A stretch of DNA of 64,000 bases from Leucoraja ocellata. Taxonomy: Eukaryota. Positions 32,101-35,100 of this stretch are shown piece after piece. Both the position numbers and the translations under genes were made by a program. Each line of letters opens with the position of its first letter. The first letter of the stretch is position 1. The stretch spans positions 4,712,001 to 4,776,000 of the forward strand of contig JAWMAR010000152.1 of NCBI GenBank assembly GCA_036785375.1, read 5' to 3'. The notes under the pieces are model-generated. The model was not told where the DNA came from. It saw only the letters and a list, made by a program, of their open reading frames with translations, and did not search any database.

Positions 32101-35100
32101 AATTACACTGAGTACTTGTCTATATCTGGAACTGGATAATATTGGGTACTTTGTCATTATTGGATCACATCCTGCGGTGCTTCAAGGAACCGATCAAAGA
32201 TTCAACATTTGGAAACTGTTGTGATATTTATGATGTACAGATAAATGTGATATATGTTCTGCTAAAATGTGCAAGGAAAGTTTCATCAAACTAGGTTCAA
32301 TACACCATAATCCACCAGAAATTGGTCAGAGGCTGTATGTGTTTGTCATTTCGAGGCGCATTTTAAAGGCAAGCAATTACTATTTTTGCACACACAAGTT
32401 TTGCAAAGGATTGTAATGCATATAGTCTGCAAAAGACTCTACAGTGCGCTATAATGATCGCAAAAATGCAGCATTCAATGAAAGCGCGGCAACAATCATC
32501 ATGACAGCACTTTGTGTATGAAGAGGTTCGTATAATGCTTTGCCCTGTCTTGCAGAAACATCTCAAAAGCGCTAACGATCGACAGATTATTTCTCAACTG
32601 ATGCGATTCTTGTTATGTAGCAAAATGCGGCCGCAAATTTTCAAACGGCAAATGATATGAATGATCAGTTAACCTGTTTTGGGTGGTGTAGGTTGAGTGC
32701 TAAGCAGCTGCTTAAAGCATTGAACTTGCGCATAACAGCCCAGTGCAGCTATTTCCACAGCAATTTTCCTTGGACAATGGAGTGTACCAGCCACATTTTG
32801 ACAACCAGGCGCAAAAGGCTTTAATTAATGAAGTGAGCCACCATATACTGCATGGAGGGCCGCTCCTCCTCAGAGAAACCTGGTGCAGCAGGCCTGGAAA
32901 TAAATCGTGGAGCTTGTAAATGCTGCTTCCAGAACCCAACGAACCTGGCAAGATGTTAGGAAGAAGATGGGAGATCTCAAGAAATCGGCTAAGGTAAGTC
33001 AATAATATTAATATGCACCTGCAAGAAAGTCAACCCTGGCAAACTTCTCATTCTTGTTGCCGCTCTGTTGAAACTGGTTTGAGGCAATTCACCAGTGCAG
33101 CACTGCCAAGAGAATCAAGGGCAATGAATGGGGATTTTTATATCTAAGTTATGAAGTGCTTATGCAAATATCTGTACGCAACATTTCCAAAAGGGGATAG
33201 AGCCAATGACTGTTTGGAAGTGAATCTAGCAGGGTGATACGCATTCGTTGAAAACATCTCGTACGCCACAGAAACTGTGCAACTGCATGTGCAACTAACT
33301 GTCAGTGCCCTGGGTACATTCAACCTATCAATACTGTTCTTCTCCTTGCAGGACAAGATGGCCTTCAATCAGCGAGAACAGTGCTGCATTGGACTCAGCC
33401 AATTCGTGCCCCTACCCTATGCAAGAACGACACTTTGGAACTAATAAGCAGGGAGAGTATAGAGGGAATGGGGGACGGCAAAGCTGCAAGCTTCCAACGA
33501 GTTCATGGCTAGTATGATAATATTTTTGTTGTATCATTTTGATCTGTTAAATAACTGTCGATCAGGCACATGCTGACCTAAGTAAGAGTGCAGATAATAC
33601 CGTGGAGTGACGCATTATCTTCTCTTTTCACAGAAATGGAAAAACAGAGTGTAGCAGTATCGGCAAGAAAGGCCACAATCACAGCACTTTTTATAGCACA
33701 ATCACTTTATCAACCACCAGGTTCAGCTGCACACTTCAAAGAACATAGATAGGGAGATTTAGGAGGAGCCTCAGGGGTAAGTCACAGCCCACGGATGAGA
33801 AGGAGCAAGAGGGCCTGTTGATCATCGACTGAAGAAAAAAAACAGCGCGGTTACTGAAGCAGTATCGGAATATCTGCACATGTTAACCACAACGGATCCG
33901 CTGAAAAGCAGAACACTCCTGTCTGAGCAAATCATCGGCTGGGATCATTTACGTGCGGGATACATTGGTGCAAAATCCTGAAAGGATTGTTGAGGAGCAC
34001 ACTACCTAGATCTGTGCAGTTACAGATGAATGGTTGGTTACGCTGGAGTTTTCCATCAAGTGTGTGGAAACTCCAATGGGCCTGCAGTGGTAACCCCTCA
34101 GTGCAGATCAAAGGCACATTTGGGACATTTCTCATAAATGTTCATACTACCACGATAAGAGATTTAAGGCTCAGCCCTTAAAGGTGCTCTTTTGACACCC
34201 TCAGATAATTTGGAGATTGGATGCAGGCAGTCGTAAAGAATTTGCGGATTTTACAGATGCCTGAATTCGATTCTCACATGAGTGGATGTTGAGAGAATGC
34301 ATATTGCCAGGCGAAAGAGATGATCGGGTCTTACATTAATCCAAGCTGTCAAGATTTCCAACGTAACACTAGGTATGTAAGAATAAGCAATATGATCGGT
34401 CGCAAACATGAGTGAAGCTACTGGAGTCCGTGCCACATAGAGGTTTCATGCCACTACTATTCCAACAGCCTGACTATGGAACTCACCACCAACCTATACA
34501 ATCATTCCCTTCGAGAGGGAATCAATGAGGAGAAGATGAGGTAGGCCTGTTCTACCCCCAACAAACTCCAGACACAAAGTACAATCTTCACTATATACAT
34601 AATGGCTGGAATAAAAACACTGGATTCAATTTGTACATTCTGCTGTGTGTTTATTTGTCTTTGATTAAAGTTAAACTTGATTGAGGATTCTGGATGGGCA
34701 TGGATGATATTTGAGGAATTGTACTGGTGAGTATAACTGCAGCTGGTTTGGGATGCTTCACTAATATATTTGGATGGCAATTTTATTACATGGAACAGCA
34801 CTGAAAGACATCTTGAATTTGTATCTATGGACCAGCTTTCTTGCTGCCCTGCTGGTTCAACAACCACATCTCTGAGTTCCGTATTGCTATGTCTTTGACA
34901 TTCTATTCTTCTTCCAATGCAGAGCGGAGAAAGAAATTTGCATTTACATCGCTCCTCTCACATGTCCCCAATTGTTTAATTCCGAATAAATTATTTCGCA
35001 AATGGACTCGCTGTTGTTTTATAACCAAATGCGGCTGCTAAATTTGCATAGGGCAAGATCGCACAAGCGCCAAATGAAAGTCATGACCACCTGATCTGCT

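Follow-up and report, generated by a model that had tools for sequence, protein, structure and literature searches.

A probable dead PIF/Harbinger element in a long collagen intron of the skate Leucoraja ocellata, with a Myb-gene intron that is probably still excised

A fibrillar collagen gene of Leucoraja ocellata carries in one of its introns what is likely a dead two-gene PIF/Harbinger transposon, and the first intron of the element's Myb gene is probably still excised as a harmless intron within the collagen intron. The stretch of DNA analysed here, referred to as the window, comprises 64,000 nucleotides of contig JAWMAR010000152.1 (positions 4,712,001 to 4,776,000). Elements of the PIF/Harbinger type consist of two genes, one for a DDE transposase and one for a Myb/SANT trihelix protein, according to PMC9179366. 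Three features that mark membership in this group are present in the window, namely a HARBI1-type transposase gene, a Myb/SANT trihelix second gene, and the location of both within a unit of a few kb. Intact frames of the kind found in an active autonomous Harbinger are absent, both genes being interrupted by frameshifts and stops. The relic is most likely best filed as a dead Harbinger whose ends were not recovered, and not as a domesticated gene or a demonstrated poison exon. We infer that an autonomous element inserted into the collagen intron, with its Myb gene in the sense of the collagen gene, before the related species considered below split. The element would then have died, taken in two small repeats and decayed.

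We take the host gene to be col2a1, for which a 54-exon numbering is used here; counted back from the three C-terminal exons, the intron is number 43. It extends over 5,902 nt on the plus strand (30657..36558) between exon 43 (30549..30656, 108 nt, plus strand, in a Gly-X-Y frame with AG/GT ends) and exon 44 (36559..36666, 108 nt, plus strand). Splicing of position 30656 to 36559 is documented in runs X2, X23 and X24: among the reads across 29800-37000, the GT..AG skip of 5902 nt occurs in 51 reads (33 starts) of X24 and in 3 reads of X23, and it is present in an X2 contig at a depth of 14,789.5. The first-pass annotation had singled out this intron as the longest col2a1 intron in the window, at 5.9 kb, and had ascribed its length to an old Harbinger or a once-domesticated gene. 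It does exceed the other 31 helix introns of the window, the next in length measuring 3,149 nt, and recognisable parts of the element, from about 32.8 to 36.0 kb, account for more than half of the intron, which supports the element as the main cause of its length. Most of the remainder is a degenerate tandem-like stretch with a unit of about 29 nt (30830-31880). An intron further upstream contains near-perfect long inverted repeats of the back-to-back short-repeat type at 29302-29521 and 28387-28501, with arms of 92 nt and 45 nt, respectively.

Two decayed copies of an old repeat lie inside the element in the same orientation, at 32521..32771 and at 34931..35180. The first matches the second with an nhmmer E value of 2.7e-6, a score equalled by one in 500 shuffles, and its portion 32650-32696 matches contigs from other places in runs X16 and X19. 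The second copy, of repeat family D12, is located between the 3' ends of the Myb and transposase relics. Both presumably resemble a Deu-type SINE.

The Myb/SANT relic is encoded on the plus strand and can be read as three exons. In exon 1 (32791..32993) a first peptide segment of 23 residues begins at 32791, and a second one of 35 residues, in a different frame, ends at 32993 and is followed by GTAAGT; the exon contains a frameshift near 32860 and a stop (TAA, 32901-32903), and an ATG at 32777 is out of frame. Acceptors are located at 33351/33352, where the reading resumes with DKMAFNQRE, and at 33633/33634, and a further frameshift is present in exon 2. The peptides, the TAA, the two frameshifts and the three splice sites noted in the first-pass annotation were all recovered at their positions. 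So was the assignment to the Myb/SANT class, for which a profile check had been suggested: a 41-residue piece of exon 1 matches Pfam PF13873 (Myb_DNA-bind_5) with an E value of 1.8e-7 and 31.5 bits, as compared with a cut-off of 21.7, and the whole frame still does so with an E value of 5.1e-6. When all 127,906 six-frame positions were scored with ten intact Myb genes, the position of the N-terminal helix (32791) came out among the top two; in a single pairwise test the helix alone is not significant, 28 of 150 controls being as good. The alignments of exon 2 and exon 3 are better than those of all 150 and all 30 control stretches, respectively, and exon 1 shares 30 of 65 residues with the shark protein P0004.

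Intron 1 of the relic (32994..33351, plus strand, 358 nt, phase 0) possesses a strong donor, a strong acceptor and a branch-point-like AACTAAC at 33293-33299; donor and acceptor scores rank 26/32 and 32/33 among the collagen sites of the window. Its position is that of an intron in an intact gene of the same genome (L055; see below). Exon 2 (33352..33507, plus strand, 156 nt, one net frameshift) ends where locus L003, aligned to it, has a GT donor. The donor of the relic itself (33507/33508) reads GC, and its score of -1.8 lies below those of all 32 true collagen donors, whereas the remaining relic sites rank with true sites. Exon 3 (33634..34356, plus strand) shows homology at 34025-34235 that continues weakly to 34356, a provisional 3' end, and contains an internal donor at 33776/33777, 143 nt into the exon; the corresponding donor of the intact gene is found 150 nt into exon 3. 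Thus, the proposed spliced gene is borne out in its layout and in the sites at 32993, 33352 and 33634, and only the exon-2 donor departs from the claim of intact splice sites. The relic also begins where the originally proposed span of 32791..33700 does, and reaches beyond the end of that span to at least 34235.

A relic of a HARBI1-type DDE transposase gene is located on the minus strand at 35344..35953, as judged by frameshift-tolerant alignment, and points toward the Myb gene. Its best stretch is 35681-35418, and it contains three to four frameshifts and one or two stops. An intact skate transposase matches the minus strand at 35678-35421 (E value of 1.4e-6), and 82 of 120 homologues of that protein match the minus strand within 34500-36560 at E<1e-3, with none matching elsewhere in the window. 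The nine best of these matches are shark or ray proteins, in a query set that was seeded from the skate protein. A custom transposase profile hits the window with an iE of 2.5e-12; a six-frame Pfam scan of 32200-35700, with stops read as X, returned the Myb domain only and no match to the DDE domain PF13359. The first-pass annotation had suggested a search for a HARBI1-like transposase within 32300-35400; the relic exists, with nearly all of it outside that range (about 35950-35344). At the positions that we take to be catalytic, the relic has Asn in place of the first Asp motif and retains the Asp of LLGD, while a frameshift interrupts the Glu region.

The Myb relic (plus strand, 32791-34356) and the transposase relic (minus strand, 35953-35344) converge and are about 1 kb apart, a convergent layout being usual for Harbinger two-gene elements. 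A Myb domain and a HARBI1-type transposase also occur together in a single shark gene model, P0030. As compared with vertebrate PIF/Harbinger elements (PMC9179366), the window holds the same gene pair, side by side within about 3.2 kb; it differs in that both frames are dead, the terminal repeats and the target duplication were not recovered, and no DNA-level copies were found. The survey in PMC9179366 detected no Harbingers in the elephant shark, and its authors urged the study of other cartilaginous fish. By contrast, the skate genome has many, and the relic is a readable two-gene Harbinger fossil from a group in which that one survey found none, which gives it a modest importance. Literature searches on Harbinger in skates and elasmobranchs, on PIF-Harbinger domestication in sharks and on col2a1 introns yielded no paper on this element.

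Harbinger ends are described as terminal repeats of 25-50 bp flanked by a 3-bp duplication (PMC9179366). A search for terminal inverted repeats of this size around the relic returned best pairs at chance level only (121 of 150 controls were as good), and decay of the extent seen here could erase such repeats. A search for the target duplication gave nothing above chance; a 14-nt pair at 32425/36486, flanked by ATA and TTA, was equalled or surpassed by 18 of 150 controls. The 3-bp target duplication of Harbinger elements has the letters TAA/TTA. Searches of the skate's own genome with three parts of the element, insensitive ones that give no proof of a single copy, returned the window itself only. 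Stop-ridden transposase relics are dispersed in the genome: 20 loci were taken from 105 scored matches, with preference for those of higher identity and, in most cases, for those with stops, and all 20 match the profile while 18 contain stops. None of these 20 loci carries a Myb relic of this clade beside the transposase or shows DNA likeness to the window. Their best Myb scores were 17.9-28.1, as compared with 86.1 for the window and a control maximum of 24.2; the four loci slightly above that maximum were not counted as Myb matches. Among the loci examined, the paired layout was thus seen only at the window copy.

Intact transposase frames also exist in this genome. An intact HARBI1-type frame on contig C105 (L054:5430-6590) is 96% identical to a sawfish protein, and another on contig C382 (L078/L108, 1738189-1739313) is 62% identical to a sawshark protein; neither has a Myb neighbour in the stretch read, and both are candidate domesticated transposases. 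Near-identical intact Harbinger-type frames at many loci (L038-L053) and a second group of another type (L024-L036) suggest families that were recently active in this genome.

Use of the relic's splice signals is suggested by one contig. Within 32000-33700, run X12 yields a contig of 57 nt in which 358 nt with GT..AG borders are missing and 32993 is joined exactly to 33352, at a depth of 58.1 as compared with 62.6 for the unspliced form; the contigs adjoining it break at the same points. This joint stems from one contig of one run that is flagged 'probably DNA', and its short side of 27 letters is below the bridging bar of 31 letters, normal collagen contig joints having 22-31. None of the listed runs is recorded as RNA; collagen joints with GT-AG borders occur in X1 and X2, and the X12 stretch examined is without a collagen exon. 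Contigs of X1, X2, X16 and X19 do not show the 358-nt skip, those of X1 and X2 being unbroken across the sites; X23 and X24, with a depth of at most 0.6 at 32933-33414, provide no test of it. A heterozygous precise DNA deletion was considered as a source of the X12 joint in view of the depths of about 1:1 and three shared end letters, and was judged unlikely, as the ends coincide with the predicted GT and AG and the joint is missing from X16 and X19. The flanking X12 contigs run on unbroken for 2,048 and 3,142 nt without loose ends at 32993, 33352 or 33634, and in X12 the splice therefore takes out an intron that belongs to the relic and links no collagen exon. Taken together, relic intron 1 is probably still spliced out in one relative, that represented by X12. 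Of the junctions at 32993, 33352 and 33634 that the first-pass annotation had proposed to look for, the one from 32993 to 33352 was thus encountered in one X12 contig, and none to a collagen exon was found.

Because the Myb gene lies in the sense of the collagen gene, the relic donor could pair with the relic acceptor. We propose that this pairing of the surviving intron-1 sites takes place in some of the collagen pre-mRNA or else in a weak transcript that the relic itself produces, two sources that look the same in contigs. The product of the nested splice would remain an intron, to be discarded when exon 43 joins exon 44, and neither relic gene would yield a working protein. Nested splicing of this type, with both sites inside an intron, has been described (10.1101/159350, PMC4482092). 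The present case agrees with it in the GT-AG splice and in having both sites inside the host intron; it differs from the described cases in that the intron is inherited from a transposon gene and was observed in a single run from a single relative. As such, it represents a concrete case in which the intron of a dead transposon seems still to be spliced within a host intron, and it would matter more if the nested splice were conserved or affected collagen II output.

The 5' part of the relic might have been co-opted as non-coding DNA or RNA, be it as a nested splice that tunes removal of the collagen intron, as an enhancer, or as a small non-coding transcript. We regard this as unlikely. Its appeal lies in intron-1 signals that match true collagen sites in strength while the frames are heavily decayed, in the roughly one half of X12 molecules over the site that are spliced, and in reporter experiments in which intrasplicing helps or hinders removal of the full intron (10.1101/159350). 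Low divergence would fit as well: in the X1 contig, 5 of 1,371 sites differ from the window in 32330-33700, as compared with 68 of 3,948 elsewhere (Fisher p 6e-5; p 0.001 after scan correction, with boundaries picked after X1 had been seen). However, the pattern was not clearly repeated in X19 (23/1,361 vs 8/327, p 0.36, the count of 23 having been obtained by subtracting the listed flank rows from the total for the contig), and X12 differs from the window by 3.4-4.5% across pieces. A shared recent haplotype is as plausible an explanation of the X1 stretch as selection, and the splice is missing from the X1 and X2 contigs. A more specific version seems improbable to us. It holds that the intron of the dead transposon gene was kept as a working nested splice step in collagen II pre-mRNA, in which the strong donor and acceptor engage one another and thereby safeguard or adjust the removal of the longest intron, and that the poison-exon donor was lost. 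Exon 2 is the one ordinary internal exon of the relic, and the loss of its donor did eliminate the likeliest cassette exon; that selection caused this loss is speculation.

Returning to the dead Harbinger that we favour, the Myb and transposase genes decayed to a similar extent. The Myb gene has 6 lesions in 504 aligned nt and the transposase gene 5 in 489, 4 in 589 and 5 in 510 with three different queries. Both genes are therefore about equally broken, at about 1.0-1.2 lesions per 100 nt, and these similar counts do not suggest a longer life for the Myb frame than for the transposase. Organisms A, B and D all have the relic. The two X12 contigs that cover exons 1 and 2 have 31 and 5 gap letters, and every one of these lies outside the two exons; the frameshifts of exon 1 and exon 2 are therefore common to organism B, which at about 4% divergence is the most distant relative compared. 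An intact Myb frame of the kind a domesticated gene would have is thus missing, and four of the five exon-1 substitutions listed, a set that lacks some of the X12-only ones, are non-synonymous, a small count that reveals no purifying selection at the protein level.

When the skate's genome was searched with the relic exon, the one other match was an intact three-exon Harbinger-type Myb gene on contig C52 (L055:1232-4222) with a CpG-rich start (observed/expected 0.95). Its relatives comprise 15 proteins, and all 12 with an organism name are from sharks or rays; 13 relatives are 74-84% identical to it, and outside these are two near-self records and one short partial match. The C52 gene has a phase-0 intron directly after KKSTK, an exon 2 of 163 nt and a long exon 3; a donor lies 150 nt inside the latter, at which the shorter isoforms P0001, P0005 and P0014 of the family diverge. 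The relic follows the same plan: its intron comes directly after KKSAK, exon 2 occupies 33352-33507, exon 3 begins at 33634, and the exon-3 homology is at 34025-34235. Among 1.84 billion representatives, the proteins closest to the relic belong to this shark and ray family (51-56% identity, 53-56% over the Myb helices), and its local scores with the family are 119-131, as compared with at most 100 for other members of the clade. The place of the relic was not fixed by a tree of 20 rows, which has no starred branch. A match to P0136 was dropped as a tandem-repeat artefact. The C52 gene itself is likely a shark and ray domesticated gene, no match being named from outside these groups. Further intact Myb paralogues are located on C33 (two), C165 and C1430/C3082, and C107 contains exon-3-like frames. 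Seven of the 19 PF13873 matches (loci L012, L016, L017 and L019-L022) belong to a different Myb subtype, present in multiple and partly broken copies, which is probably a younger Harbinger-like family.

The relic and the shark and ray genes for P0002-P0015, with L055 as their intact copy, thus have in common the phase-0 intron after KKS(T/A)K, the exon-2 motif, the internal exon-3 donor, a similar exon-3 region and 53-56% helix identity. By contrast, the latter genes are intact and share 74-84% identity among sharks and rays, and the C52 copy is CpG-rich at its start and has no transposase in the 9.9 kb read. It is very unlikely that the Myb gene of the window became domesticated at this site, as a gene within the collagen intron, and was lost afterwards in the skate lineage, even though its nearest family looks domesticated and the relic retains all three exons and the internal donor. 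A transposase adjoins it, while none lies within 9.9 kb at any of the five intact Myb loci checked, the lesion density is the same in both genes, and no closer intact protein was found: no hit exceeded 56% among the 1.84 billion representatives, and a word search gave one candidate and none that scored, both being weak tests with a 43-residue query. The first-pass annotation had left the choice between an old Harbinger and a once-domesticated gene. The dead Harbinger is favoured because the transposase partner is present and about equally decayed.

Domesticated Myb and transposase genes such as NAIF1, MSANTD1-4 and HARBI1 share the PF13873 domain family and the origin of the relic, but they are intact, conserved single genes of jawed vertebrates (PMC9392472), whereas the relic is broken and stands beside a transposase. 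The nearest relatives of the relic, unlike NAIF1 and MSANTD1-4, form a family without a name, for which our searches returned members from sharks and rays only. The shared three-exon layout ties this conserved family to a Harbinger transposase, and this tie points to further domestications beyond NAIF1 and MSANTD1-4.

The first-pass annotation had further suggested that sense splice sites of the relic could act as poison exons; regulated inclusion that sends collagen mRNA to decay is highly improbable, despite 33634-33776 being one of three strong pseudo-exons in 37,043 intron bases, despite the collagen-frame stops that both 33352-33507 and 33634-33776 would introduce if included, and despite the fact that decay would mask inclusion at steady state, since no joint at relic sites accompanies the 51 and 3 normal reads, the intron contig of X1 and X2 is unbroken over 30628-35946, X12 has no loose ends at the three sites, the exon-2 donor is broken and exon 1 is without an acceptor at its start. 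Junctions from a collagen exon to 32993, 33352 or 33634 were absent from X1, X2, X23, X24 and X12, where a raw-read joint required 3 reads, so that only inclusion above about 6% is excluded in the raw reads, and where contigs drop rare forms. Raw reads gave the normal collagen junction only (54 reads), and contig depth is about 15,000 for this junction as compared with about 67 for the single unbroken intron contig in each of X1 and X2. This intron contains a second strong pseudo-exon of 242 nt (35170-35411), for which no junction was seen and which overlaps the transposase relic at its 3' end. Depth across the intron rises toward its 3' end, which equally fits a 3' bias or an internal start.
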